Positions 29,841 to 63,717 of a stretch of 64,000 nucleotides of DNA are shown piece by piece (positions within the stretch are counted from its first letter, which is position 1; every line of letters starts with the position of its first letter). The DNA is taken from the NCBI RefSeq assembly GCF_046105845.1, contig NZ_CP151004.1; one strand, given 5' to 3'. Source of the stretch: Escherichia coli (GTDB lineage: Bacteria > Pseudomonadota > Gammaproteobacteria > Enterobacterales > Enterobacteriaceae). Position numbers and translations under genes: made by a program. The notes under the pieces are model-generated. The model was given only the letters and a program-made list of their open reading frames with translations. It was not told the origin of the DNA and did no database searches.

Positions 29841-31013
29841 TTGCTGTTGAAACGCCGTCTTATTATTGCTGCTTCTTTGTTCATTTTTAACTTATCGTCT
29901 GGTTTTGCGGCGGAAAACATTCCTTTTTCACCTCAGCCTCCAGAGATTCATGCCGGGTCCTGGGTATTGATGGATTACACCACCGGTCAGATTCTCACCG
30001 CGGGTAATGAGCATCAACAGCGCAATCCCGCCAGCCTGACAAAGCTGATGACGGGCTATGTCGTGGATCGCGCTATCGATAGTCATCGCATTACGCCAGA
30101 CGATATTGTCACCGTGGGGCGCGATGCGTGGGCGAAAGATAATCCGGTATTTGTCGGTTCTTCACTGATGTTTCTGAAAGAGGGCGATCGCGTATCGGTA
30201 CGTGATTTAAGCCGTGGTTTAATTGTGGATTCCGGAAATGACGCTTGTGTTGCTCTGGCTGACTATATTGCCGGTGGGCAACGGCAGTTTGTTGAAATGA
30301 TGAACAACTATGCCGAGAAGCTGCATCTCAACGATACGCATTTTGAAACAGTGCATGGTCTGGATGCACCAGGCCAGCATAGCTCGGCTTATGATTTAGC
30401 TGTGCTTTCTCGCGCTATCATCCACGGCGAGCCCGAGTTTTATCATATGTACAGTGAGAAAAGTCTCACCTGGAACGGTATCACCCAGCAAAACCGTAAC
30501 GGGTTATTGTGGGATAAAACCATGAATGTTGACGGCCTGAAAACGGGTCATACTTCTGGTGCCGGGTTTAATCTCATTGCTTCGGCTGTCGATGGGCAGC
30601 GTCGTCTCATTGCAGTGGTAATGGGGGCTGACAGTGCAAAAGGTCGTGAGGAAGAGGCTAGAAAATTACTGCGTTGGGGGCAACAAAACTTTACTACGGT
30701 GCAAATTTTGCACCGTGGGAAAAAGGTCGGAACGGAACGCATCTGGTATGGCGATAAAGAAAATATCGACCTGGGAACGGAACAAGAGTTCTGGATGGTG
30801 CTACCGAAAGCCGAAATTCCACATATCAAAGCCAAATATACCCTTGATGGTAAAGAACTCACCGCGCCAATTAGCGCCCATCAGCGGGTAGGGGAAATTG
30901 AACTTTACGACCGTGATAAACAGGTGGCGCACTGGCCGCTGGTTACCCTGGAATCTGTCGGGGAAGGCAGCATGTTTTCCCGCCTGAGTGATTATTTCCA
31001 CCATAAGGCCTGA
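29841..31013 (+). CDS. dacD: D-alanyl-D-alanine carboxypeptidase (PBP6b)
   Basis: 390 aa; signal peptide, SxxK (ASLTK) and SGN motifs; TTG start, alternative TTG at 29847. Confidence 0.93.
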   Translation: MLLKRRLIIAASLFIFNLSSGFAAENIPFSPQPPEIHAGSWVLMDYTTGQILTAGNEHQQRNPASLTKLMTGYVVDRAIDSHRITPDDIVTVGRDAWAKDNPVFVGSSLMFLKEGDRVSVRDLSRGLIVDSGNDACVALADYIAGGQRQFVEMMNNYAEKLHLNDTHFETVHGLDAPGQHSSAYDLAVLSRAIIHGEPEFYHMYSEKSLTWNGITQQNRNGLLWDKTMNVDGLKTGHTSGAGFNLIASAVDGQRRLIAVVMGADSAKGREEEARKLLRWGQQNFTTVQILHRGKKVGTERIWYGDKENIDLGTEQEFWMVLPKAEIPHIKAKYTLDGKELTAPISAHQRVGEIELYDRDKQVAHWPLVTLESVGEGSMFSRLSDYFHHKA

Positions 31014-31099
31014 CCTTTCTTTTGCAGCAGACTGGCAGGAGTGCGAGTCTGCTCGCATAATCAACACTCATTCCTTGTGGTTTTAATATTGCAACTATG

Positions 31100-31115
31100 C
31101 TGTATATAAAAACAG
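31100..31115 (+). promoter_or_regulatory. LexA (SOS) box upstream of sbmC
   Basis: ctgtatataaaaacag fits the CTGT-N8-ACAG consensus, 17 nt upstream of the sbmC start. Confidence 0.65.
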
Positions 31116-31131
31116 TGTTAATGGAGGCGTC

Positions 31132-31605
31132 ATGAACTACGAGATTAAGCAGGAAGATAAACGTACCGTTGCAGGTTTCCATCTCGTTGGCCCGTGGGAG
31201 CAGACGGTAAAGAAAGGTTTTGAGCAGTTGATGATGTGGGTAGATAACAAAAATATTGTGCCGAAGGAGTGGGTTGCTGTCTATTACGACAATCCAGATG
31301 AAACACCCGCCGAAAAATTACGCTGCGACACCGTCGTGACGGTACCGAATAACTTTACGCTCCCCGAAAACAGTGAGGGCGTCATTCTGACAGAAATTTC
31401 AGGTGGTCAGTATGCGGTTGCGGTGGCTCGTGTAGTCGGTGATGATTTTGCTAAACCCTGGTATCAGTTCTTTAATAGCCTCTTGCAGGACAGTGCTTAT
31501 GAAATGTTACCAAAGCCCTGCTTCGAGGTTTATTTGAACAATGGCGCGGAAGAGGGGTACTGGGATATCGAAATGTATGTTGCGGTGCAGCCAAAACATC
31601 ACTAA
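31132..31605 (+). CDS. sbmC: DNA gyrase inhibitor
   Basis: 157 aa; matches SbmC/GyrI. Confidence 0.95.
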
Positions 31606-31803
31606 TTCATCTCAGGGCGGTGTGTTAACGCGAAGACCACTCTTTTTTTTGAAAGCGAAAAGAGTAAGATGCGCCTTTCAATTTTTTCGCTCCTGCCGGG
31701 AAATTACACTGTTCCCGGTTTGTCCGTCGGATAATTCAGAGGCGCGCCTTCTGGCCGACAGATGTGTTATGAGCGCTTTTAATCTTCATTACGGAGTTTC
31801 TGC

Positions 31804-32862
31804 GTGCGTGCCGATAAGTCATTAAGCCCGTTTGAAATCCGGGTATACCGCCATTACCGCATTGTGCATGGTACTCGGGTCGCGCTGGCATTCCTGCTCA
31901 CTTTTCTCATTATCCGCCTGTTTACTATCCCGGAAAGCACCTGGCCGCTGGTCACCATGGTGGTGATTATGGGGCCAATCTCGTTCTGGGGTAACGTTGT
32001 CCCTCGTGCCTTCGAACGTATTGGCGGTACGGTGTTGGGGTCGATTTTAGGTCTTATCGCTCTGCAACTGGAGTTAATCTCGTTACCGCTGATGTTAGTC
32101 TGGTGCGCGGCGGCGATGTTTCTTTGCGGTTGGCTGGCGCTGGGCAAGAAACCGTATCAAGGTTTATTGATTGGGGTGACGCTGGCAATTGTTGTTGGTT
32201 CCCCGACAGGTGAAATTGATACGGCGTTATGGCGAAGCGGCGATGTGATCCTCGGCTCTTTACTGGCAATGTTGTTTACCGGTATCTGGCCACAACGAGC
32301 GTTCATCCACTGGCGCATTCAACTGGCAAAAAGTCTGACCGAGTATAATCGGGTCTATCAATCTGCATTCTCACCGAACTTACTCGAACGCCCACGTCTG
32401 GAAAGCCATCTACAAAAACTCCTGACCGATGCCGTGAAAATGCGTGGGCTGATTGCGCCCGCCAGCAAAGAAACCCGTATTCCAAAATCGATATATGAAG
32501 GTATCCAGACCATTAACCGCAATCTGGTTTGTATGCTGGAGTTGCAAATCAATGCGTACTGGGCCACGCGCCCCAGCCATTTCGTGTTATTGAACGCGCA
32601 AAAACTTCGTGATACCCAGCACATGATGCAGCAAATACTGCTGAGCCTTGTTCATGCGTTGTATGAAGGTAATCCGCAGCCGGTTTTTGCCAATACGGAA
32701 AAATTGAACGATGCTGTGGAAGAGCTGCGTCAGTTGCTCAATAACCACCATGACCTGAAGGTTGTGGAAACACCAATCTATGGTTATGTGTGGCTGAACA
32801 TGGAAACGGCACATCAGCTTGAGTTGCTATCGAATCTGATTTGCCGGGCCTTGCGCAAATAA
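31804..32862 (+). CDS. yeeA: FUSC-family inner membrane protein
   Basis: 352 aa; N-terminal TM helices; GTG start inferred. Confidence 0.88.
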   Translation: MRADKSLSPFEIRVYRHYRIVHGTRVALAFLLTFLIIRLFTIPESTWPLVTMVVIMGPISFWGNVVPRAFERIGGTVLGSILGLIALQLELISLPLMLVWCAAAMFLCGWLALGKKPYQGLLIGVTLAIVVGSPTGEIDTALWRSGDVILGSLLAMLFTGIWPQRAFIHWRIQLAKSLTEYNRVYQSAFSPNLLERPRLESHLQKLLTDAVKMRGLIAPASKETRIPKSIYEGIQTINRNLVCMLELQINAYWATRPSHFVLLNAQKLRDTQHMMQQILLSLVHALYEGNPQPVFANTEKLNDAVEELRQLLNNHHDLKVVETPIYGYVWLNMETAHQLELLSNLICRALRK

Positions 32863-33463: not shown

Positions 33464-33907
33464 TTAGCGACAGCCTTCTTCTGTATGCAGCAAGGCTAAA
33501 AGTTCTGCAACTCCATTGTTATTAACCACACTGGTTACTAACACGTTGTGCGCTCCAGCTTCCCGTAACCAACATTTCACCAAAGATAGTTGTTCCATGT
33601 TGGCTAAATCTGCTTTGGTTACTACTCCAATGACCGGGCGATTCATTGACGAGGTAAAGCCTGGCGAAAAAGGTGACCACGGTGCGTCCGCATTAAGCAC
33701 CAGCGCGATAATGTCCGCTTCGCAGGCACTGACCAACAGTGCACTGTAGAGGCTGCGGTTTTCGAGGTATTCGCCTGGTGTATCAATGGTGGTCGGGGAC
33801 CAGACGATTGCCTGCGTTTTCTGATAATGAATATTTTCGCCACGCAGACATTGCGTGAGTGACGTTTTTCCGCACTGGCTGGGGCCGATGAGCATCATAC
33901 GTTGCAT
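33464..33907 (-). CDS. pduV: propanediol-utilisation microcompartment GTPase (EutP/PduV family)
   Basis: 147 aa; P-loop GPSQCGKTS; last gene of the pdu operon. Confidence 0.9.
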
Positions 33908-33911
33908 AACG

Positions 33912-34262
33912 TCAGGTTCGCGTAATGGGGCAGGCGGTAAAGCGCATCATTTCACCCAGCGTACGGGTAACCTGGCTAAGTGCATATTCGATCGCAGAAA
34001 CATCACCAGTCAGCACTACGGCACCGGTAAAACGATCAAGAAAACCGATCTCTACAGAGCCTGATTTTGTGGCGATATCACATGCGATGATAGATGCTTC
34101 GCTGGGGGTAATTGTAAGAATACCAATAGCGGAAATGGTGTCTGGTAAACCCAATTTCTTAAACAGATCCTTCCCTGGATTGGCGATGACATGTGCCAGC
34201 GTGACCTGCTTACCAGGGACATATTCCTGAATCATCCGTTCAGTTGTGTGCTGAGTTGTCAT
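33912..34262 (-). CDS. pduU: BMC shell protein PduU
   Basis: 116 aa from [20 protein letters not shown]; start overlaps the pduT stop by 1 nt; ORF track is longer by 8 codons. Confidence 0.9.
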
Positions 34263-34816
34263 TATCCCTCCACCATCTGACGCCACATGGCTCCATGTGG
34301 ACGGGCAATCACTGACCGATAGACCAACAAACCTTTTTCCCCCGCACGCTCGCTGGCGACAGAGACCGCGTTATTAACATCTGAAATATCGCCAGCAACC
34401 ACCATGTAGCATTTACCACCAATGCCAAAAGCCATATGTACGCGAACGAGAATGACATTCGCAGCTTTGACAGCACAATCGGCAGCGTCAATGCAGGCGG
34501 CGACACCCCAGGTTTCGACTACGCCGACAGCCCGGTGCTGTTCAACATGGTTAAGTCCGCTGATTGCAGAAAGGAGGCTGGGATGAATATTCGGCAGGAC
34601 AAGACTGTCGACCAGCATTTCACCAGCAAGGGACGCTCCGCTGTTGATGGCCTGTTGCACCGCGCCCACATCGCCACCGAGCATCAGCAGAAATTTTCCG
34701 GGGCATAGCGTTTTGCTGACCAGTAACTCAACGTTGGCGCTTTTCAGCATGGCGTCGCCGGTTTCCATCCCTTTCGCGATACTGCTAAGTTCTAAAATAC
34801 CTACCGCTTTCGACAT
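34262..34816 (-). CDS. pduT: tandem-BMC-domain shell protein PduT
   Basis: 184 aa with two BMC domains. Confidence 0.92.
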
Positions 34817-34818
34817 CG

Positions 34819-36162
34819 TTAACCTCTCACAAGCGTAATCGCGTTTTCTGTCACATCGCTGACCATGCCATCAATACTGGCATGAATGGGGGCACCTAAT
34901 GTGCCGTGTGGAATTTGACCTACATATTGCCCATGAACGACGCGATCGCCTTTTTGTACACACGCAATTGCGCTGGCACCGATGTGCTGGCGTAACAATA
35001 ACGTCACTTTTTCGGGTTGAGGCACCTGTTCAGACAATGGCGCATCCTGATACCACGGGATTAGGCCCAGTCTGGTTACCAGCCGTTTTACGGGAATCAG
35101 TCGATAATTTGCCATGGGATCAGCAGGATTTAAGGCACCTTCGTAGCGGAGATTTTGTGCGCGTAATTCCTGCTTAAGCAGACGGTTTATGCGCATTGGT
35201 GAAATTCCTACCGGACAGGCGACGCTGGCGCAGACGTTGCACTCCGAACAGGTGAGCGCCGTCAGTAACAGTTGTGGCGTAGCGAGCTGTTGGTAGTTAA
35301 CCGCACGTACTAATAAATGGGGGGCCAGTTCGTGACCGACTAAATGACGTGGGCAGAGATCGGTACACAAGCGGCATTGCTCACAAACAGTTTTCGCGAC
35401 GGCAAGTACGCTGCGGTCATTCTGCATTCGACGTTGGATCAGTGAATGAGAGTTGGGTAAAACCAGCAAGCCGCCAGTGGTTTTGCTGACTGGTGTGTCG
35501 AGCGATGTGATCAAACTTCCCATCATCGGCCCGCCATTGATAAAACCAGGAGCATCCACTGTTGCGCCGCCCGCCAGCGCCAGGACTTCACGTAAAGACA
35601 TGCCGATGGGGACGGTTACCGTTATTGGTTTCGCCACTGCACCATTAACGGTGAGTGTGCGGCGCGTCACTGGATACTGTTGCTCGACGGCTCTGGCAAT
35701 ATTAAGTACGGTTTGAACATTATTGACCACCACACCGACGCTAACGGGTAATGCAGCGGGTGGAACGCGGCGACCAGTTGCCATCCAGATGGTCAGCACT
35801 TCGTCTCCTGCGGGGTAAACATCGGGAAAAATATGCAGGCGGATATCCGGTGGTAATAGGGGTGTGAGTGCGTTTATTGCCAGTTGATATTTCTCTTTCA
35901 GCGCGATGATTCCGCTACTGGCCCCGGTGGCTTTCATCGCATAGTGAACACCGCGAAGCAGGCGGCTGGCTTGCTGCGCCATTAACTGTTGATCCACTTT
36001 CAACATGGGTTCGCATTCCGCCGCATTCACCAGGAACGTGTCAACACGCGCTTGTAGCTTAATATGGGTTGGGAAACCTGCGCCGCCAGCACCCACGACA
36101 CCTGCTGCCTGTACTCGCTCGCGGATGGTCTGGTCGTCGCAGGAGGTTAACTCGACGTTCAT
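34819..36162 (-). CDS. pduS: cobalamin reductase PduS (RnfC/NuoF-like flavo-iron-sulfur protein)
   Basis: 447 aa; two CxxCxxCxxxCP ferredoxin-type motifs ([25 protein letters not shown]). Confidence 0.92.
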
Positions 36163-37271
36163 AACAACTCCTCGAGCAGTTCTGCAATAGCGGTGGCATC
36201 AGCCGCACGCGGGTTGGTACGCAACGTTGCATCCGCCAGTGCCGCCTGAACCATATCTGGTATGCGTATTGACCATTCTGCTTTTTTTTCTTTCAGCACA
36301 TTGGTAAGAGTCGGTAGCTTACAGGTTGTTTTAAGCTGTTCAATATGTTGAATAAGTGCATTCAGGCTGGCGGTGTCATTGGCGTTGTCCGGGCATAAAT
36401 GGCACGTTTTCGCCAGCCGGGCGTAGCGTTTGGCAGCGCGCGGATCGCCAGCATTAAAGCGGATAACTGCCGTGAGCAGGAGCGCATTCGCCAGGCCGTG
36501 TGGCAGATGAAACTGTCCGCCGAGTTGATGAGCAATTGCATGGTTTAAACCGAGTCCGGCCTGGCTAAAGGCCATTCCTGCAAGCGTCGATGCATTATGC
36601 ATTTTGCCACGGGTGGCAAGACAATTGCCTTTTTTCACTGCAGTGGGCAGGTATTGAAAAACAATTTGCACGGCTTTTTCGACCAGTGCATCCGTGAAGT
36701 CGCTGGCGCGAGGAGAAACATAAGCTTCAAGCGCATGGGTTAAAACATCCATCCCGGTATTGGCCGTTATCGCCGGTGGCACGCTGACGATCAGAGATGG
36801 ATCAAGGATCGCGATATCCGGATAAAGTGCATTATCGAAAAGGGGATATTTAATCCCTTTCTCAGGATCGCTGATGACACAAGCACTGGTCACTTCGGAA
36901 CCGGTACCGCTGGTGGTAGGAATGGCTACGCAGGTTTCAATTTCAATGCCACACTGGCGACCGAACCAGACAATCGCTTTTGCGGCGTCCAGGGCAGAAC
37001 CGCCGCCAAAACCGATAACCACATCCGGGCGTAAAGTCTGCATTTGCGCAATGCCTTTCACCACGGTCTGGATAGTTGGGTCGGGCGTTATTTCGCTAAA
37101 AATACTAAGACGATTACTGTCGGGCAGCGCCTGATGCAACGTGTCAATAAGTGGTGAGCGTGCCAGAAAGGCATCGCAAATAATCCAGATGTGTCTATGA
37201 GAGAAACGGCTAAGTACCTTGAGACTTCCTGGTCCGCTGTATAAACGCGTCTGCAGTGAAAAAGTATTCAT
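36159..37271 (-). CDS. pduQ: 1-propanol dehydrogenase (iron-containing alcohol dehydrogenase)
   Basis: 370 aa; Fe-ADH family (GGGSALDAAK motif). Confidence 0.92.
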   Translation of the reverse strand: MNTFSLQTRLYSGPGSLKVLSRFSHRHIWIICDAFLARSPLIDTLHQALPDSNRLSIFSEITPDPTIQTVVKGIAQMQTLRPDVVIGFGGGSALDAAKAIVWFGRQCGIEIETCVAIPTTSGTGSEVTSACVISDPEKGIKYPLFDNALYPDIAILDPSLIVSVPPAITANTGMDVLTHALEAYVSPRASDFTDALVEKAVQIVFQYLPTAVKKGNCLATRGKMHNASTLAGMAFSQAGLGLNHAIAHQLGGQFHLPHGLANALLLTAVIRFNAGDPRAAKRYARLAKTCHLCPDNANDTASLNALIQHIEQLKTTCKLPTLTNVLKEKKAEWSIRIPDMVQAALADATLRTNPRAADATAIAELLEELL

Positions 37272-37281
37272 TTCCGTTTCT

Positions 37282-38667
37282 CTAGCGAATTGAAAAGCCG
37301 CTGGTTAACACGCAGCGTCGTGAGCGGGCAAAAGTCCGTGCTGACGTTGTCCCTTCTCCGGTCGGTGTTGCAATGGTAAAGGTCGTAAAGCCTTCGCCGC
37401 CGACGCCAATACCCGCCCAGGAGGGGCCGTTTTTGACAAAGATTGAGGTTTGCATAACGCGTGCGGCAAGGTTGAGCCGTGAGACGTTCTGCGAGTGCAT
37501 AATTGCCGTGTGGTGCAAGCCGTCTTCCACTTTCAGCGCCAGGGTGAGAGCGCTATCAAAATCGTTGACCTTCACAATGGGCAGCATTGGCATCAGTTGT
37601 TCACAAGTAACCCAACTATCATTGGCGTCGACAACAGCAATCAGTAGGCGCGGCGCTTTTGCGGGCAAAGGGAGGCCTGCCGCTTCCAGCAAGGCTGATG
37701 GGCTTTTCCCAACCAGTTTTTTGTTGGCGCTACCGTCTGGCAGGCAAATTGCACGCAATTTCTCCGTTTGCTCATAGTTAAGAAGAAGCGCGCCAAAACT
37801 TTGCATCTGCTGAATTAAATACTCTGCCACTGATGCTACGACAATCAGGCTTTTTTCAGCGATACACGGCAGGTTGTAATCAAATGAAGCGCCGTTGATG
37901 ATATCTTCGGCGGCTTTCACAATATCCGCCGTTTCATCGACGATACACGGAGGGTTACCCGCTCCGGCACCAATCACTTTCTTGCCACTTTTCATTCCCA
38001 TGGCGACGATCCCCGGACCGCCGGTAATCGCCAGAACGCTGATTTTAGGGTGCGCCATCATCTGTTCGGTAGCAGCAAAGGTCGGTTCAGATACGGTAAC
38101 GATCAGGTTATGAATGCCACTACAGCGAAACGCGATGTCTTCGATTATGGTAATCAGTTTTAACGAAACGTTTTTGGCTCCCGGGTGTGGACTGAAGTAG
38201 ACGCTATTACCTGCTGCCAGCATGCTGATGCTGTTGTTAATGATGGTTTCCGTGGGGTTGGTGCTTGGCGTGACCGAGCCAATCACCCCAAACGGAGAGT
38301 ATTCAAACAAAACCATGCCACCATCACCGGTCAGTGCTGTGGTGGTTAAATCTTCAATTCCAGGCGTGTTATCAAGTGCCGCTTTGTTTTTTAGGTACTT
38401 ATCTTCTTTATTTCCCATCCCCGTTTCTTTGGCGCTTTCTTCTGCCAGTTCGGTCAGGCGGGGCATTAATTCTTCGCGAATGGCGCTGATAATGGCGCTA
38501 CGGGTTTTAAGCGGGCACTGTTGAAAGCGTAAAAAGGCCTGGTGTGCTGCGCAGACCGCTTCATCAACAGTCTGGAAAATAGCGTTTCTTTGCGCTCGTT
38601 GCGTAGCGGGGGCAAGCTGCTCACGCAGAATATTGCGGATCAGTGTTTCTAATTCAGAGTTATTCAT
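37282..38667 (-). CDS. pduP: CoA-acylating propionaldehyde dehydrogenase
   Basis: 461 aa aldehyde dehydrogenase with amphipathic N-terminal extension MNNSELETLIRNILREQLA. Confidence 0.93.
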   Translation of the reverse strand: MNNSELETLIRNILREQLAPATQRAQRNAIFQTVDEAVCAAHQAFLRFQQCPLKTRSAIISAIREELMPRLTELAEESAKETGMGNKEDKYLKNKAALDNTPGIEDLTTTALTGDGGMVLFEYSPFGVIGSVTPSTNPTETIINNSISMLAAGNSVYFSPHPGAKNVSLKLITIIEDIAFRCSGIHNLIVTVSEPTFAATEQMMAHPKISVLAITGGPGIVAMGMKSGKKVIGAGAGNPPCIVDETADIVKAAEDIINGASFDYNLPCIAEKSLIVVASVAEYLIQQMQSFGALLLNYEQTEKLRAICLPDGSANKKLVGKSPSALLEAAGLPLPAKAPRLLIAVVDANDSWVTCEQLMPMLPIVKVNDFDSALTLALKVEDGLHHTAIMHSQNVSRLNLAARVMQTSIFVKNGPSWAGIGVGGEGFTTFTIATPTGEGTTSARTFARSRRCVLTSGFSIR

Positions 38668-39671
38668 TGGTTTACTCCCACGTTAATTGCCGCCATTGCG
38701 CTTTGGGCAATATCCATGTCTTGTTCAACGCTACCACCGCTGATGCCAAGCCCCCCGAGCAATATTCCGTCACGCCAGAGGGGGAAGCCGCCACCAAAGG
38801 TGACGACTTTGCCTTGCATATGGCTTTCGAGCCCATAAAGCGGCGCGCCGGGTTGCACGGTATCAGCAAGCTTGTGGGTTGCTGTTTTCATCGCCACGGC
38901 GGTCCAGGCTTTTTTCGGTGCCAGTTCACTGCTGACCAACAGGGCATCAGGCATCCGCCAGGTAACACTTTCTGTTCCGTTGGCATCAACAATGCTGATG
39001 ACAACGGGAATATGCAGTTCATCCGCGCGCATTGCCGCACTACGAATGAGCTGGTGAAGATCCTGAAATGTGAGCGGCATTGTGCGTTCCTTCAATGCTG
39101 GTGTGTGGTTGGCTTCGTGATAACGTTTTGTGATTTCCTGAATCATCAGGTTTTGATGAGCAACGTTGTCTTCCACTCGGGCGAGGGCATACAGGCAATC
39201 GGAAAGTCGGTTGATATAGTGCAGCAAAACATTCCGGACGTTGGTTTCCGTTGTCAGTTCAACCAGACGTCTTTCAGCCCGTCGAGCCACTGTGCGGGCG
39301 AAATGCATGTGGCTTGCGGCTTCAGATCGACCAGGCAGAATGAAGCTGTGAACTGGGGGGACGGCGTTCATTGCGCTATCGATCGCGTTTTCCAGCGCAG
39401 CAATTTCTTCCGTACTGATGTAACGCTGCTTCGCTGACGGCTGTTCGCTTTCACTCGCGAGTTCGGCGCTAAACCAAAATATCTGTTGTTGAATGGCTTC
39501 CAGTAAGATGCGATGGCTTTCGATGGCGGTGGCGCAATAACACAGACTGAGTGTCGCGTTCAGTTCATCCAGCGTGCCATAGGTTTCGACACGTAGATGA
39601 GTTTTGCTGACGCGCTGTCCGGTAAATAAAGACGTACTTCCTGAATCACCTGTTCGGGTATAAATTGCCAT
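38664..39671 (-). CDS. pduO: ATP:cob(I)alamin adenosyltransferase PduO
   Basis: 335 aa; N-terminal MAIYTRTGDSGSTSL PduO-type ATR domain plus C-terminal domain. Confidence 0.93.
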   Translation of the reverse strand: MAIYTRTGDSGSTSLFTGQRVSKTHLRVETYGTLDELNATLSLCYCATAIESHRILLEAIQQQIFWFSAELASESEQPSAKQRYISTEEIAALENAIDSAMNAVPPVHSFILPGRSEAASHMHFARTVARRAERRLVELTTETNVRNVLLHYINRLSDCLYALARVEDNVAHQNLMIQEITKRYHEANHTPALKERTMPLTFQDLHQLIRSAAMRADELHIPVVISIVDANGTESVTWRMPDALLVSSELAPKKAWTAVAMKTATHKLADTVQPGAPLYGLESHMQGKVVTFGGGFPLWRDGILLGGLGISGGSVEQDMDIAQSAMAAINVGVNQ

Positions 39672-39682
39672 CTTTCAGCTCC

Positions 39683-39958
39683 TTAGCGCGAAAGCGTATC
39701 GACAATGCCGACCACTGCCAGGTCGATGGCTTCGTTAGGGCCGGAAAACACATGTCTGGCGCTGGAACCACTGCTGAGGAGTACCAACTCACCAACGCCT
39801 GCGCCGACGGAATCAACGGCAACTTCGTCGCCAGTTAATGGCGTGAGAGGCAGTTCGCCGTCAGCACTGACCCGGCGAACCAGCAGCAGTTTTTTCCCGA
39901 TCAGAGAAGGTGATTTTTGCGTGGATACTACCGCGCCAGTGACTCGAGCCAGATGCAT
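39683..39958 (-). CDS. pduN: BMC vertex (pentamer) protein PduN
   Basis: 91 aa EutN/CcmL-family. Confidence 0.9.
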
Positions 39959-39961
39959 AGG

Positions 39962-40453
39962 TTACTCCTGCCTGATTAACTGAATATTTCGGGTAATTGC
40001 CGCTTCACGAGCCAGTGCGGTCACACAACATTTCCGCTGTAACACCAATATTCCCGAGCTTAACTGTGCGATATCGACATAACTTAAAAGTCGATCATGA
40101 TGTAGGTAGATCGGTTGCCCTTGTTCGTCGCACCAGCTTAGCGGTAGACGGGCGAGAGTCTTCAATTCAATGGCGTTCAGGAAATGACGCTGCAACGCCA
40201 ATTGAATGTGCATTCCCCAGGCTAACGCTTCGTGTATCTGGATTGCTGCTCGATCTGACGTTTCGTTCTCCGCAAGTTGTCGCAGCAGCGGCAGATCGAC
40301 ATATCGGATTTGTAATGACGCATACTGATGAACGCTCTCTTGAACGCTGGCGTCTCGCAGTTGAAAAACAGTCAGCACGAGTGTTTTTCCCGCACGTTGT
40401 TTAAGGCGAAAAACCACTTCGTCAACAATACGTTGCATCAGTATGTTATTCAT
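39962..40453 (-). CDS. pduM: microcompartment structural protein PduM
   Basis: 163 aa; position between pduL and pduN; overlaps pduL stop. Confidence 0.85.
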   Translation of the reverse strand: MNNILMQRIVDEVVFRLKQRAGKTLVLTVFQLRDASVQESVHQYASLQIRYVDLPLLRQLAENETSDRAAIQIHEALAWGMHIQLALQRHFLNAIELKTLARLPLSWCDEQGQPIYLHHDRLLSYVDIAQLSSGILVLQRKCCVTALAREAAITRNIQLIRQE

Positions 40454-41082
40454 GGCATTGACACCAGTGTGGCAAAAACGTCAGGGCTATCAGCCCCTGC
40501 GGCGTTGGCCTCATCGGTATCAATATGCATTTCAAGACGCATATCCGGAGAGACGCGAACAGCGACGTTTTCGAATATCAGTCGTCGCTCATCACCTTCA
40601 ATGGCAACCGCCACTTTTTCGCCATGCGTAACGCCATAAATCAGGGCATCCAGCGGAGACATATGAATATGCCGTTGCGCGACAATGACGCCAGATGTGA
40701 TCTCCAGTTCCGCAAATGGACTTATCAAACGAATCCCCGGAGTGCCGCTGAGATCGCCTGACATGCGTAGCGGGGCGGTGATCCCTAACGTTCTGGCGTC
40801 CGTCCGGGAAATTTCCACCTGACTTGCATTGCGTAGCGGCCCCAACAAGCGAACGTTGTGCAATTTACCTTTTGGTCCCTCCAGCGTAACAACCTGTTCA
40901 GCAGCGAATTGGCCAGGTTGCATTAACGGCTTTTTCTCGCTAATCGGTTGTTCAGGAAAAAGACGCAAATAATCCGCTGTTGAAAGATGAATATGACGAC
41001 TGGAAACACCCAGAGGGATAGGGCGCTCACGCATCTCATCCAGAATCTGGCTCACTGTTTCCTGCAAGGTTTGTTTATCCAC
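40450..41082 (-). CDS. pduL: phosphate propanoyltransferase PduL
   Basis: 210 aa; PduL/EutD-type phosphotransacylase with N-terminal amphipathic peptide. Confidence 0.92.
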   Translation of the reverse strand: MDKQTLQETVSQILDEMRERPIPLGVSSRHIHLSTADYLRLFPEQPISEKKPLMQPGQFAAEQVVTLEGPKGKLHNVRLLGPLRNASQVEISRTDARTLGITAPLRMSGDLSGTPGIRLISPFAELEITSGVIVAQRHIHMSPLDALIYGVTHGEKVAVAIEGDERRLIFENVAVRVSPDMRLEMHIDTDEANAAGADSPDVFATLVSMP

Positions 41083-41084
41083 TG

Positions 41085-41507
41085 CTACTCCCCTCGCTTA
41101 TTGGTGTGCAGGCAAAGTGAGCGGGGCTCACCTTTTTGCCGCTGACATGCCGGGTCAAGACACAAATTACAACTGATAATCTCTGAGGTGACGGTTGTTG
41201 CTGGTGTTTCGCTTGTTTCAACCGTCCCAGTCAATGCTTCAGTTGTGTGGGGCAGAATGCCGTCTCCCGGGCGGGCAATTACTTTGTGTGCGACAAGGCT
41301 ATTTCGCTGTCCGGCGAAACTGGCTCCCGTCGCGATCGCCGCATTAACCGAGGCGACGTCACCGGTGATTTTGATGAGCGTCCAGCCTGAGCCATTGGTC
41401 TTCTCAAGGCCAACCAGCATGATAGACGCGGCTTTTGCCATAGCGTCTGCGCAACTGATGGCGAGAGCCAGACCACTGACTTCAAGTAATCCCAGTGATT
41501 GCTTCAC
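41085..41507 (-). CDS. pduK: BMC shell protein PduK
   Basis: 140 aa; N-terminal BMC domain plus Cys-containing C-terminal tail. Confidence 0.88.
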   Translation of the reverse strand: MKQSLGLLEVSGLALAISCADAMAKAASIMLVGLEKTNGSGWTLIKITGDVASVNAAIATGASFAGQRNSLVAHKVIARPGDGILPHTTEALTGTVETSETPATTVTSEIISCNLCLDPACQRQKGEPRSLCLHTNKRGE

Positions 41508-41530
41508 GCTGTGCTCCTTAGCAAATGGGG

Positions 41531-41806
41531 TTATGCCGATTTAGGTAAAATAGCCTCAACATCACTGTGTGGGCGCGGGATGACATGGCAGGATTTCACT
41601 TCGCCAACTGCGCTTGCCGCAGCGCTCCCCGCATCCACGGCGGCCTTTACTGCACCAACATCACCGCGGACCATCACCGTAATCAGACCCGAACCAATCT
41701 TTTCATAGCCAACCAGTTGCACGTTGGCGGATTTAACCATGGCATCTGCAGCTTCAATTGCGCCAACTAACCCTTTTGTTTCAACCAGTCCTAGTGCGTT
41801 GTTCAT
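41531..41806 (-). CDS. pduJ: BMC shell protein PduJ
   Basis: 91 aa canonical BMC hexamer protein, close paralogue of PduA. Confidence 0.93.
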
Positions 41807-41825
41807 ACTGCTTTTCTCCTGTGGA

Positions 41826-42176
41826 TTATGAGTGGAGTTCCCGGAAGGGAATCCCTTTTACCAGGCGGGCAGCGTTAGAGCCAATGCTGCGCCGGGCATG
41901 GTTATCTTGTTGATACATCAGCGTAAACAGTGGCGCTGATGCCGGTAAGTTTTTGTAATGCACAATCAGTTTTTCCTGATCGCAGGCAATGCCAACCAAC
42001 AGGGGAGATTGACGAGCAGCCAGCCAGGCGCTATCGATAACTTCACCTGACGGAATGTGTTGAATGCGAAAGGGAATACCTTCCTCTTCAATGCCAAGAA
42101 GCACCTCATCCCATATAGTGATGCAGTTACCGATCTCCATGACGACGATGGCTGGTGCTCGCTCTTTACTTTCCAT
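41826..42176 (-). CDS. pduH: diol dehydratase reactivase small subunit
   Basis: 116 aa; follows pduG with an 11-nt overlap. Confidence 0.9.
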
Positions 42177-43998
42177 GAATCGACTCCTTGTGCCAGGCGA
42201 TGAGTAGCCCAGTAGCTACCGCGTTGCGCGGACCTTCGCTACCACGGATATTCCCCCGTCCGGCGACCAATCGATAATGCGCCAATGCATCGGTGACTAA
42301 CTGCGGTACTTCGAAATCCAGCGAAGAACCGCCCACCAGAACGACGAACGGAATATCGCGAATATTTCCTGCAGGGCTTACCTGACGTAGCGCGCGCAGG
42401 GCATTGGTTACGAAGACACGCTCTTTCGCACTGCGACGGACAGCGCGTACTTTTTCCAGCGTCAAATCACCGGGAATAGGCACCAGTTCGTCGGGTTTCA
42501 CTACACAGACGCGGGCAAATACATGGGGGGATAGGGGAGTAGGGAAGAACTGAACGCTGCCATCTTCATGGCGTAAGTGGAACAGGCTTTCTACTTTTGC
42601 CAACGGGTACTTTTTGATTTCTTCTGCCAGATAACGATCATTTAAGCCCAGCTCACGAACGATAATCATCGTTACCATGTCGCCCGCACCCGCAAGGTGA
42701 GTGGCAACAATTTCCCCTTTCTGATTGATGATGGAGGCATCGGTAGAGCCTGCACCTAAGTCCAGAATTGCCAGTGGACGTGTGGTTCCAGGGGTAGTCA
42801 AGGCCCCCTGAATGGCGGCTTCTGCTTCTGCGCCTCCTACCTGAACATCAACATGCAGTTTTTGCTTAATTTCACTGGCGATCATTGCCATTTGCAGACG
42901 GTCGGATTTCACCATAGAGGCAATACCCACAGCCTGTTCCAGTGAAAATTCACCTGCCAGACCGCCGGTTACGCTGACGGGGACAGAGGTATCTATCGCC
43001 AGCAAATCCTGAATAAAAATTTCGTTGCTGGGTTTGTTGGTCAGTTCCGCCATGGTCTGGCGAACATGTTCCAGCATTCCGCCGATGTTGGTGCCTGGTT
43101 CTCCCGTCACGTTTTCCAGTTTTGGGCACTCACCGACCGCTTTCATAATGGCATCGGCACCAGCAGCTACATCAACGCGCGTTGTGCGCCCGGCAGAAAG
43201 CAGTTCGATATTTCCGGCGGGTATCGAACGGGCTTTAACGTCGCCAGAAGGCGTTTTCACTACCACTGCTGAACGGTTGCCGATTAGCGCCCGCGCGACA
43301 GGAACAATATTTTTAGTCTCTTCAGCATTGAGGGCGAAAACGGTGGCAATCCCATACGGGTTAGATAGGGTTTCGATAACTTTCCCGGGAACGGCAACTT
43401 CAATTGCAGCCAGCATGCCGAGCGGAATACGATCGATGTAGAGGACTTCATCAACAATAGGTAGAGGAATTTCCAGGCGGTTATTGACCAGTACGCCATC
43501 GTCGCGTTGCAGAATAACGCCAGTCAGCTGATATCCGGCGCGTACGGAGGCGTTTATCATCGTCGCGATATCGGCAAAATCAAATGCCGATGACACCACC
43601 AGGATGTAAGGTGTGTCCGCCGGGCGTGTTAATAACTCTTGCGGAGTGATGGTGAGCCCTACGCCCAGCCCCACTCCGCCCGGAGTTTTCGGGTTGTGAC
43701 CGATCATGGTTGATTCGGTGATGATGGTTTCAGTGATGGTTTCCATCGCCACATCACCAATGACCGGAGTTGCTTCGTTGATACGAATAAGCGAAATATC
43801 GCTAACATTGATGCCGACTTTTTTCGTTGCCTGTGCGAGCGCCTCCTGAATACCATGGACGTTACGCAACGTACCTTTAATTCCGGTGGTTTCCGCCAGG
43901 GCGCTACTTACGAACGACAACTCTCCAGTTGCACTGAGCGTTGCCAGCGCAATCTCTGTTGATGAGTTACCGATATCAATGCCTGCTATATATCGCAT
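42166..43998 (-). CDS. pduG: diol dehydratase reactivase large subunit
   Basis: 610 aa; actin/Hsp70-like ATPase fold, N-terminal MRYIAGIDIGNSSTE. Confidence 0.95.
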   Translation of the reverse strand: MRYIAGIDIGNSSTEIALATLSATGELSFVSSALAETTGIKGTLRNVHGIQEALAQATKKVGINVSDISLIRINEATPVIGDVAMETITETIITESTMIGHNPKTPGGVGLGVGLTITPQELLTRPADTPYILVVSSAFDFADIATMINASVRAGYQLTGVILQRDDGVLVNNRLEIPLPIVDEVLYIDRIPLGMLAAIEVAVPGKVIETLSNPYGIATVFALNAEETKNIVPVARALIGNRSAVVVKTPSGDVKARSIPAGNIELLSAGRTTRVDVAAGADAIMKAVGECPKLENVTGEPGTNIGGMLEHVRQTMAELTNKPSNEIFIQDLLAIDTSVPVSVTGGLAGEFSLEQAVGIASMVKSDRLQMAMIASEIKQKLHVDVQVGGAEAEAAIQGALTTPGTTRPLAILDLGAGSTDASIINQKGEIVATHLAGAGDMVTMIIVRELGLNDRYLAEEIKKYPLAKVESLFHLRHEDGSVQFFPTPLSPHVFARVCVVKPDELVPIPGDLTLEKVRAVRRSAKERVFVTNALRALRQVSPAGNIRDIPFVVLVGGSSLDFEVPQLVTDALAHYRLVAGRGNIRGSEGPRNAVATGLLIAWHKESIHGK

Positions 43999-44007
43999 AG
44001 TTCGTCC

Positions 44008-51488: not shown

Positions 51489-52034
51489 ATGATGATTTTG
51501 GTGACAGGTGGAGCACGGAGCGGGAAGAGTCGCCATGCAGAGGCGCTTATTGGGGACTCTTCACAGGTTCTGTATATCGCCACCTCGCAAATCCTTGATG
51601 ATGAGATGGCTGCACGGATAGAACATCATCGGAAAGGCCGCCCGGCGCACTGGCGCACGGTGGAGCGTTGGCAACATCTTGATGAATTAATTCATGCAGA
51701 CATTAACCCGCATGAAGCTGTGTTGCTGGAATGCGTTACCACAATGGTGACTAATCTGTTGTTTGATTATGGCGGAGATAAAGACCCTGATGAATGGGAT
51801 TATCAGGCGATGGAACAGGCAATTAATGCTGAGATTCAGTCGTTGATTGCTGCCTGCCAACGTTGCCCCGCGAAGATTGTATTAGTGACTAACGAAGTGG
51901 GAATGGGGATTGTGCCGGAGAGTCGTCTGGCACGACATTTTCGTGATATTGCCGGGCGGGTAAATCAGCAACTGGCCGCTGCGGCAAATGAAGTGTGGCT
52001 GGTGGTTTCGGGTATTGGAGTAAAAATCAAATGA
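51489..52034 (+). CDS. cobU: adenosylcobinamide kinase / adenosylcobinamide-phosphate guanylyltransferase
   Basis: 181 aa; P-loop GGARSGKS. Confidence 0.96.
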
Positions 52035-62964: not shown

Positions 62965-63717
62965 ATGAGTAATTTTGCAGGTAAAGTGGTTTTAGTTACC
63001 GGAGGTGCTCACGGTATTGGCAAAGGGATAGCTAAACAATTTGCTGATCGTGGTGCACATACTGTTATTGTTGACTATAACGAAGAGAACGGCAAGGCCA
63101 CTGCAGCAGAGTTAACTTTTGGCGATGTTAAATCGCTGTTTGTTAAAACAGATGTCTCCGATCCACAGGCATTAGTGGATGTACGGGAAAAAGTATTTGC
63201 TACCTTTGGTCGTATTGATGTGTTGATATTAAATGCCGGTGTGGCATTTGCCAATAAAGTTAACAATATTTCTTTTGAGGAATGGAATAAGACTATCGCA
63301 ATTAACTTATCGGGATTATTTAATACCGTTAAGGCATTTTATGATGATTTCCTGACAAATAAGGGATCTATTGTTTATATCTCATCGGGATCAGCGCTTT
63401 CGGGGACTGGGGGCGGCGTGAGCTATCCTGCCAGTAAAGCGGGAGGCGAAGGATTGATTCGTGGTCTGGCAAAAGAGTTAGGACCAAAAGGCGTAAATGT
63501 TAATGCGATTGCTCCCCGCTTAATAGACACCGGAGATATGATGCGGGTCAACTATCCAACACAAGCCGATTTAGACGCTGTCCTGGAAAAAATACCCGTC
63601 CGTCGTCTGGGGACTATCGATGATGTGGCTAACCTGGCAATATTTTTGGCAGATAAAGATAACTCTTATATTCAGGGACAAACCATTTTAATGGATGGTG
63701 GCCGGACTATTGCTTAA
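62965..63717 (+). CDS. short-chain dehydrogenase/reductase (SDR)
   Basis: 250 aa; TGGAHGIGK NAD-binding motif and YxxxK catalytic motif (YPASK). Confidence 0.88.
   Translation: MSNFAGKVVLVTGGAHGIGKGIAKQFADRGAHTVIVDYNEENGKATAAELTFGDVKSLFVKTDVSDPQALVDVREKVFATFGRIDVLILNAGVAFANKVNNISFEEWNKTIAINLSGLFNTVKAFYDDFLTNKGSIVYISSGSALSGTGGGVSYPASKAGGEGLIRGLAKELGPKGVNVNAIAPRLIDTGDMMRVNYPTQADLDAVLEKIPVRRLGTIDDVANLAIFLADKDNSYIQGQTILMDGGRTIA

Follow-up and report, generated by a model that had tools for sequence, protein, structure and literature searches.

The sbmC promoter of an Escherichia coli strain carries the known LexA operator in a different allelic form

What is the short inverted repeat that precedes sbmC in this stretch of Escherichia coli DNA, and how could it act on the promoter of the gene? 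A sequence-only reading of the window (the whole stretch analysed, 64,000 nt) had described a canonical LexA box just upstream of sbmC, consistent with SOS control of this gyrase inhibitor. The 16-mer in question, CTGTATATAAAAACAG, lies on the + strand at 31100-31115 and matches the CTGT-N8-ACAG inverted repeat (CTG-N10-CAG) exactly. It is separated by 16 nt from the ATG of sbmC at 31132, which confirms both the presence of the box and its position next to the gene. The full 20-mer operator begins 84 nt past the dacD stop codon and ends 14 nt 5' of the ATG, and its spacer, ATATAAAA, is A/T at 8/8 positions and (TA)n-like. The term canonical holds for the core of the box and not for its flanks, which read TG...TG instead of the TA...TA found in the consensus and in K-12. 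The features of the locus are listed in Table 1.

Table 1. Features of the dacD-sbmC region, in window coordinates.
Feature	Position	Strand	Basis
dacD (PBP6b)	29847..31013	+	ORF; NF008489 equivalog, 846.8 bits; annotated in K-12 and strain 135
CRP-S site, core TGCGAGTCTGCTCGCA (22-mer 31039-31060)	31042..31057	.	10/10 matches to TG[C/T]GA-N6-TC[G/A]CA
Putative -10 hexamer TATGCT (K-12 TATACT), overlapping the left edge of the operator	31096..31101	+	inference
LexA operator (SOS box), 20-mer TGCTGTATATAAAAACAGTG	31098..31117	.	sequence, position weight matrix, null distribution, K-12 orthology, cross-genus conservation
Putative transcription start region, inside the operator	31106..31111	+	tiling array and class I geometry
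Candidate group II intron homing point (empty), operator positions 19/20	31116..31117	+	L023/L024 junctions; target logo, 45 contexts
Shine-Dalgarno sequence GGAGG, 4 nt 5' of the ATG	31123..31127	+	sequence; G/C-GGAGG block in all orthologs
sbmC (gyrI), DNA gyrase inhibitor, 157 aa	31132..31605	+	ORF; NF007451; E. coli annotations

We first considered the genetic context of the site. The window was assigned to E. coli by megablast; of 5,426 complete genomes of the species, 5,418 have both sbmC and dacD annotated beneath the match. The gene order is sbcB-dacD-sbmC-yeeA-tmaR, with sbcB on the minus strand. SbmC matches the NCBIfam equivalog NF007451 over its full length (301.6 bits for a cutoff of 179, residues 1-157 on 1-157). 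Directly after tmaR, at 33464-44000, the window encodes a propanediol utilisation microcompartment (pdu) operon. The segment 20000-44000 is covered to at least 80% in only 614 of the 5,426 complete E. coli genomes, with a best identity of 98.4%, whereas the 701 nt around sbmC reach up to 99.6% identity, in a strain other than the one giving the best match to 20000-44000. This difference suggests that the lineage is sparsely represented or that the region is mosaic. The start-site table of Kim et al. 2012 contains a yeeA start within the sbmC coding region, at ~31486 and 318 nt upstream of yeeA (K-12 coordinate 2078933 in NC_000913.2). A search of 30800-31900 against Rfam retrieved no RNA family, the sole match being a chance snoRNA (E = 0.91).

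The CTGT-N8-ACAG pattern alone is at chance level in the window: it occurs twice for 0.70 expected occurrences, and 17 of 100 shuffled sequences contain it at least twice, which is not significant. We therefore turn to the score of the full 20-mer, computed with a position weight matrix derived from 17 other E. coli LexA sites (PMC3009722, Table 4), from which sbmC was excluded against circularity. The 20-mer scores 22.8 bits with a heterology index (HI) of 4.2 on the matrix as listed, and 23.2 bits with an HI of 4.7 on the symmetrised matrix. It outscores all other positions of the window by ~10 bits. Calculated from the exact score distribution, the probability is P = 9e-9 per position; over both strands, 0.0012 sites of this score are expected in 64 kb and 0.09 in a 5-Mb genome. 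The maxima of 200 first-order Markov windows had a mean of 11.7 bits, and the highest reached 21.1 bits, below the score of the operator. The 20-mer is far beyond chance. On the same matrices the 17 verified sites range from 13.5 to 28.3 bits and from 0.6 to 11.9 in HI; the window operator falls inside this range, level with the operators of lexA, sulA and recA. Matrix scoring was the check suggested along with the original claim, and it returned the best score of the window, clearly not a low one. The second CTGT-N8-ACAG match, CTGTTTGTTAAAACAG at 63136-63151, scores 13 bits with an HI of ~11, a level expected 0.63 times per window, and we attribute it to chance. It lies inside an ORF of 250 aa, where the closest genome annotates an SDR-family oxidoreductase.

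The site is the known sbmC SOS box in a different allelic form, and sbmC is a textbook member of the LexA regulon. The SOS box of K-12 sbmC (gyrI), TACTGTATATAAAAACAGTA, occupies the orthologous position between dacD and sbmC and likewise ends 14 nt short of the start codon. Across the 127 nt that separate the dacD stop codon from the opening codons of sbmC, these included, the window and K-12 MG1655 show 4 differences, while the 16-bp core of the box, the CRP-S site and the Shine-Dalgarno sequence are all identical. Two of these differences are A-to-G changes within the box, at its position 2 (31099) and position 20 (31117), where both K-12 and the consensus have A; the two others are SNPs outside the box, at 31088 and 31119. 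On the same matrices, the K-12 box scores 26.8-28.3 bits and the window box ~23 bits.

The regulation of the K-12 gene has been described experimentally. Among the SOS motifs that precede UV-induced genes, its box has the highest score (PMC3009722). Induction by AZT is 5.7-fold, with a 9.5-fold dependence on LexA cleavage and a reported box HI of 2.8 (PMC11228462). A reporter of the sbmC promoter responds to UV in a biphasic manner, and the involvement of an alternative sigma factor was suggested (PMC5999292). The SOS induction of the gene is modest, and sbmC has been classed as both an SOS and a stationary-phase gene (Baquero 1995, as cited in PMC10886550). The orthology of the window site to this characterised SOS box supports, at the level of sequence, the earlier reading that sbmC is under SOS control. 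LexA dependence, induction by UV and AZT, and dependence on Sxy and CRP are taken here from the K-12 literature, and sequence, score, orthology and conservation from the present analysis. In this strain sbmC would be wired as in K-12, and the finding of the operator itself adds nothing new.

LexA is not the sole input at sbmC, since a CRP-S site for Sxy and CRP-cAMP, likewise already known, lies upstream of the box. In K-12, sbmC is induced 6-fold by Sxy from a class I promoter with a strict need for CRP and cAMP (PMC1635313). The core of the window's CRP-S site (TGCGA/TCGCA, with C6 and G17) is identical to that of K-12, and its centre, at 31049.5, is 58 bp upstream of the centre of the LexA box. 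We found the CRP-S site conserved in Escherichia, Kluyvera, Salmonella, Citrobacter, Lelliottia and RIT714. The spacing between the two sites varies little: E. coli has 58 bp, the other Escherichia have 59 bp, and Salmonella, Kluyvera, Lelliottia, Citrobacter and RIT714 have 60-61 bp, whereas two genera that are more distant have 47 bp, shorter by one turn of the helix. By contrast, the box and the Shine-Dalgarno sequence can be as close as 14 nt or as far apart as 137 nt, and even a 1.9-kb intron is tolerated between them. The nearly constant spacing on one side and the variable distance on the other are consistent with an operator that lies on the core promoter and is followed by the 5' UTR.

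Further data on the position of the promoter point the same way. A TAnnnT hexamer is present at the position of the putative -10 in every ortholog with the CRP-S module. In the window, the corresponding hexamer implies a start 58.5 to 61.5 bp downstream of the CRP-S centre, which suits class I activation; it was not called by a consensus promoter scan. Class I geometry, counted from the CRP-S centre, places the start at ~31111. In tiling-array data, with a resolution down to 7 nt in intergenic regions, the UV-induced sbmC transcript begins 100 nt past AGGCCTGACC..., at ~31106. With the putative start, the CRP-S centre of E. coli would be at ~-58.5, 3 bp short of the textbook -61.5. Both the -10 and the +1 would thus lie on the operator, the classical arrangement for repression by occlusion. 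Among start-site resources, the only sbmC start in the table of Kim 2012, obtained under non-inducing conditions, is a weak site of 2 reads inside dacD; the Cappable-seq supplement has no entry at the expected sbmC coordinates, and the tiling-array supplements do not list sbmC. An RNA hairpin is predicted at 31023-31057 (-22.9 kcal/mol, z = -3.35), just past the dacD stop and overlapping the CRP-S site. It is not followed by a U tract and is therefore not a typical intrinsic terminator, and its left arm is not conserved in Kluyvera.

We then analysed the conservation of the operator across the Enterobacteriaceae. A contig scan with strict peptide patterns provided 13 loci, and Citrobacter, Salmonella and Lelliottia were added through protein look-ups. 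A LexA box adjoins sbmC in 14 of the 15 enterobacterial orthologs sampled. In most of them it scores 14.7-24.6 bits and stands 14-20 nt 5' of the ATG. This is the case in Escherichia (two further lineages of E. coli, E. albertii, E. whittamii and Escherichia sp. E1V33), in two Kluyvera species, RIT714, RIT691 and Enterobacteriaceae bacterium 89, and in Salmonella and Lelliottia. In Citrobacter (L020:340-600) a box of 24.2 bits is 137 nt upstream, with ~120 extra nt between the box and the Shine-Dalgarno sequence, which fits the segment 3' of the box being 5' UTR. The right CAG half-site is retained in every ortholog with a box, while the spacer drifts; four orthologs depart from the left CTG, with GTG found in both RIT714 and Lelliottia, and ATG in both RIT691 and bacterium 89. 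In Salmonella Typhimurium the LexA box of sbmC has a published HI of 6.32 and the gene is induced 3.55-fold by nalidixic acid (PMC8072944). The box of Salmonella Saintpaul, CACTGTATATAATTACAGTG, is 16 nt before the ATG, with a CRP-S site 60 bp upstream; it differs from the window box by its CA...TG flanks and by its spacer.

Two loci depart from this pattern. Intestinirhabdus alba (L014), the exception among the 15, has neither a LexA box nor a CRP-S site next to sbmC; the highest-scoring box-like site there (16.6 bits) is located 166 nt upstream. In Escherichia sp. MOD1-EC7003 (L016:1170-1460), the LexA box has been lost through a deletion of 18 bp, and a deletion extending into the upstream region of yeeA truncates sbmC after ~82 codons. 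The latter is a natural negative control, in which the operator and the gene decayed together.

The 20-bp palindrome is very probably the LexA operator of the sbmC promoter and would repress it by promoter occlusion. In the undamaged cell, a LexA dimer would occupy the two CTGT/ACAG half-sites and, the operator overlapping the putative -10 and start, would exclude RNA polymerase from the promoter. Upon DNA damage, RecA-stimulated self-cleavage of LexA would free the promoter and SbmC/GyrI would be made. CRP-cAMP and Sxy, at the CRP-S site 58 bp upstream, would activate the same promoter, so that sbmC would combine a damage signal with a nutritional or competence signal. Could the palindrome instead be A/T-rich promoter sequence that arose by chance and does not bind LexA? 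Its spacer does resemble a -10 element (TATAAA), and we noted above that the short pattern is at chance frequency in the window. Yet the score of the 20-mer is expected only 0.0012 times per window, the CAG and most CTG half-sites persist in a dozen species while the spacer drifts, and the orthologous K-12 site is lexA-dependent, which effectively refutes this possibility. It is also very improbable that LexA acts as a roadblock, i.e. that transcription starts near 31068 from a promoter-like site at 31032-31061 and that LexA, bound at +30 to +49, blocks elongation. The site in question, CTGGCA-18-CATAAT, is the only stretch between dacD and sbmC that matches the sigma-70 consensus on the + strand, and its CATAAT is conserved across genera. 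However, it overlaps the CRP-S site: CATAAT covers the right half of that site and its flank (TCGCATAA), which accounts for its conservation, and CRP bound there would occlude such a promoter, yet CRP activates sbmC. Moreover, the UV-induced transcript of the tiling array begins near 31106 and not near 31068, and class I activation requires a start ~61 bp downstream of the CRP centre. We therefore reject this match as the main sbmC promoter and regard it as a by-product of the overlapping CRP-S site.

A different question is whether the operator, although genuine, is partly derepressed in its TG...TG form, with a weaker affinity for LexA and a higher basal level of SbmC; the A-to-G change at 31099 might in addition weaken the -10. 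According to the matrices, the two G's cost 3.6-5.5 bits and add 2.5-3.6 HI units relative to the K-12 box. A single-base polymorphism in the yebG box of Salmonella measurably alters expression heterogeneity (PMC8072944), and the double-G 20-mer is absent from all 5,426 complete E. coli genomes. The 42-mer of the window has an exact match in none of these genomes either, its best full-length matches having one mismatch. We counted alleles by exact match for named haplotypes, which are a part of those present among the 5,426 genomes. G at position 2 with A at position 20 was found in 8 genomes, and A at position 2 with G at position 20 in at least 596; the K-12 haplotype was found in 622, the A/A/T haplotype in 689, and G at position 2 on a K-12-type flank in none. 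These counts indicate that each G is a natural polymorphism of E. coli and that their combination alone is unseen. They also rule out that G at 31099 is private to the window strain, since the 8 genomes carry it on other haplotype backgrounds. Against derepression, the score remains in the range of the strong operators of lexA, sulA and recA, and the flanks carry little information, position 2 being G in 8 of 34 in the symmetrised matrix. The boxes of E. albertii and of the E69 lineage likewise begin with TG. Among verified operators, lexA box 1 (TGCTGTATATACTCACAGCA) and the ruvA box (CGCTGG...) also have G at position 2, which shows that an operator can work with this base. In spacer and right flank they are unlike the window site, and their scores, 20.9-22.9 bits, are similar to that of the window site. 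On the published scale, the HI would shift from ~2.8 to ~5-6, near recA and sulA. We consider partial derepression unlikely. Judging from the matrix scores, the TG...TG allele would entail a modest loss of LexA affinity relative to TA...TA rather than a loss of function, and would remain within the range of strong operators. The reading that we retain is that of a working LexA operator through which the sbmC promoter would be occluded.

The window thus combines two flank polymorphisms, each natural in E. coli, into a pair otherwise unseen, in an operator that ranks among the species' strongest for LexA. Together with the other alleles this pair forms a natural series (TA..TA, TG..TA, TA..TG and TG..TG) for the study of how flank bases tune LexA affinity. 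The pair may affect the basal level of SbmC, a protector of gyrase from microcin B17, quinolones and albicidin.

The survey of orthologs also uncovered a mobile element at the operator. Some SbmC proteins in the databases have 223 aa. We rejected these as a new architecture of the protein, because the gene calls run upstream through promoter or intron sequence. A call of this length occurs in an ENA metagenome contig of 1.4x coverage (L025:345-1016), where the homology to the window sets in precisely at the left edge of the LexA box (31097) and an upstream HTH_XRE gene runs in frame into sbmC. The contig is probably a chimera made in assembly, its two parts having been joined at a k-mer of the LexA box that they share, and less probably the product of a genuine rearrangement at the box. 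In E. coli GCA_045607625.1 (L023) and in a Logan assembly (L024), the call extends into the 3' end of a 1,909-nt insertion (L023:775-2683), which begins with GTGCG, ends with ...CGCGAC and encodes a reverse transcriptase of 494-495 aa. In both, the insertion is in the sense orientation of sbmC and lies exactly between the positions corresponding to 31116 and 31117 of the window. It matches the Rfam family group-II-D1D4-6 with 186.6 bits, the level to which we assign its class. RVT_1 is the only domain of the encoded protein, in which no endonuclease domain was detected.

The intron is widespread: 219 of the 5,426 complete E. coli genomes have it, at 230 places on plasmids and 45 on chromosomes. 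We analysed its insertion contexts in 7 E. coli copies and in 52 copies from viral or prophage contigs, which gave 45 distinct 5'-exon contexts. The intron is always preceded by ...ACAG(T/C), and in all contexts but one (gltS) the 19 nt on its 5' side are positions 1-19 of a LexA box. These boxes score 17-28 bits, and all but one exceed 22 bits. Hosts include sbmC, the chromosomal umuDC, a plasmid umuD and the S24 peptidase gene of a prophage. The first base after the intron is A in 20 of the 20 occupied sites with a readable 3' exon, and the target logo reads TACTGTATAT..A.ACAGT^A. Within the ribozyme, ACUGUU (intron positions 187-192) is complementary to AACAGU at -6 to -1, and UAUAU (158-162) to AUAUA at -13 to -9, making these two segments candidates for EBS1 and EBS2, respectively. 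After insertion the box, ending in ...ACAGTG, scores 24.6 bits. A Shine-Dalgarno sequence and a start codon are found within 30 nt after the intron in 9 of the 20 cases, in which the intron is probably part of the 5' UTR of a gene under SOS control.

These observations lead us to propose, tentatively, that LexA operators, including that of sbmC, may be the natural homing site of a widespread endonuclease-less group II intron that leaves the operator intact. The window itself carries no intron and its site is empty. Its 5' exon, TGCTGTATATAAAAACAGT, departs from the logo only at -18, where it has G, as in 3 of the 45 occupied contexts, and its +1 base (31117) is G, which does not follow the A rule of the 3' exon. 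A match with 2 mismatches to the first 15 nt of the intron (GTGCGCCGGGCGGCC), at 51636-51650 on the minus strand, was rejected as a chance match: 6 of 100 shuffled sequences give one, and no LexA box accompanies it.

Besides the sbmC operator, this mobile group II intron enters many LexA boxes, always at the same precise point, whether they are carried by plasmids, by prophages or by chromosomes. If LexA operators are indeed its homing site, the intron would often stand between an SOS promoter and its gene, placing its transcription and mobility under SOS control. The A/G polymorphism at 31117 could then affect susceptibility to the intron as well as affinity for LexA. We found no description of a LexA-box target specificity of a group II intron in the open-access literature, and it may already be known. 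If unreported, it would be a new example of a retroelement addressed by the binding site of a global regulator.

Each part of this locus has counterparts among known systems. The operator of E. coli umuDC has, in K-12, the same 20-mer as the sbmC box (PMC3009722, Table 4), from which the window allele differs at two flank positions. Like that of sbmC, it is promoter-proximal and directly upstream of its gene, and the group II intron described above enters both at the corresponding point; its promoter context differs and includes no CRP-S site. The promoters of ppdD and yrfD share with sbmC the CRP-S core TGCGA-N6-TCGCA with C6 and G17. In contrast to these genes, sbmC is not a DNA-uptake gene, and it carries a LexA operator besides its CRP-S site. 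For the intron, the nearest precedents are group II introns with structured or conserved DNA targets, such as those of class C, which insert after terminators, and those that target attC sites. Like them, the element described here is a small endonuclease-less retroelement found at a recurring palindromic regulatory motif and not at one particular gene. It differs from them in that its target is a LexA operator and in that candidate pairings of both EBS1 and EBS2 to the box are present.
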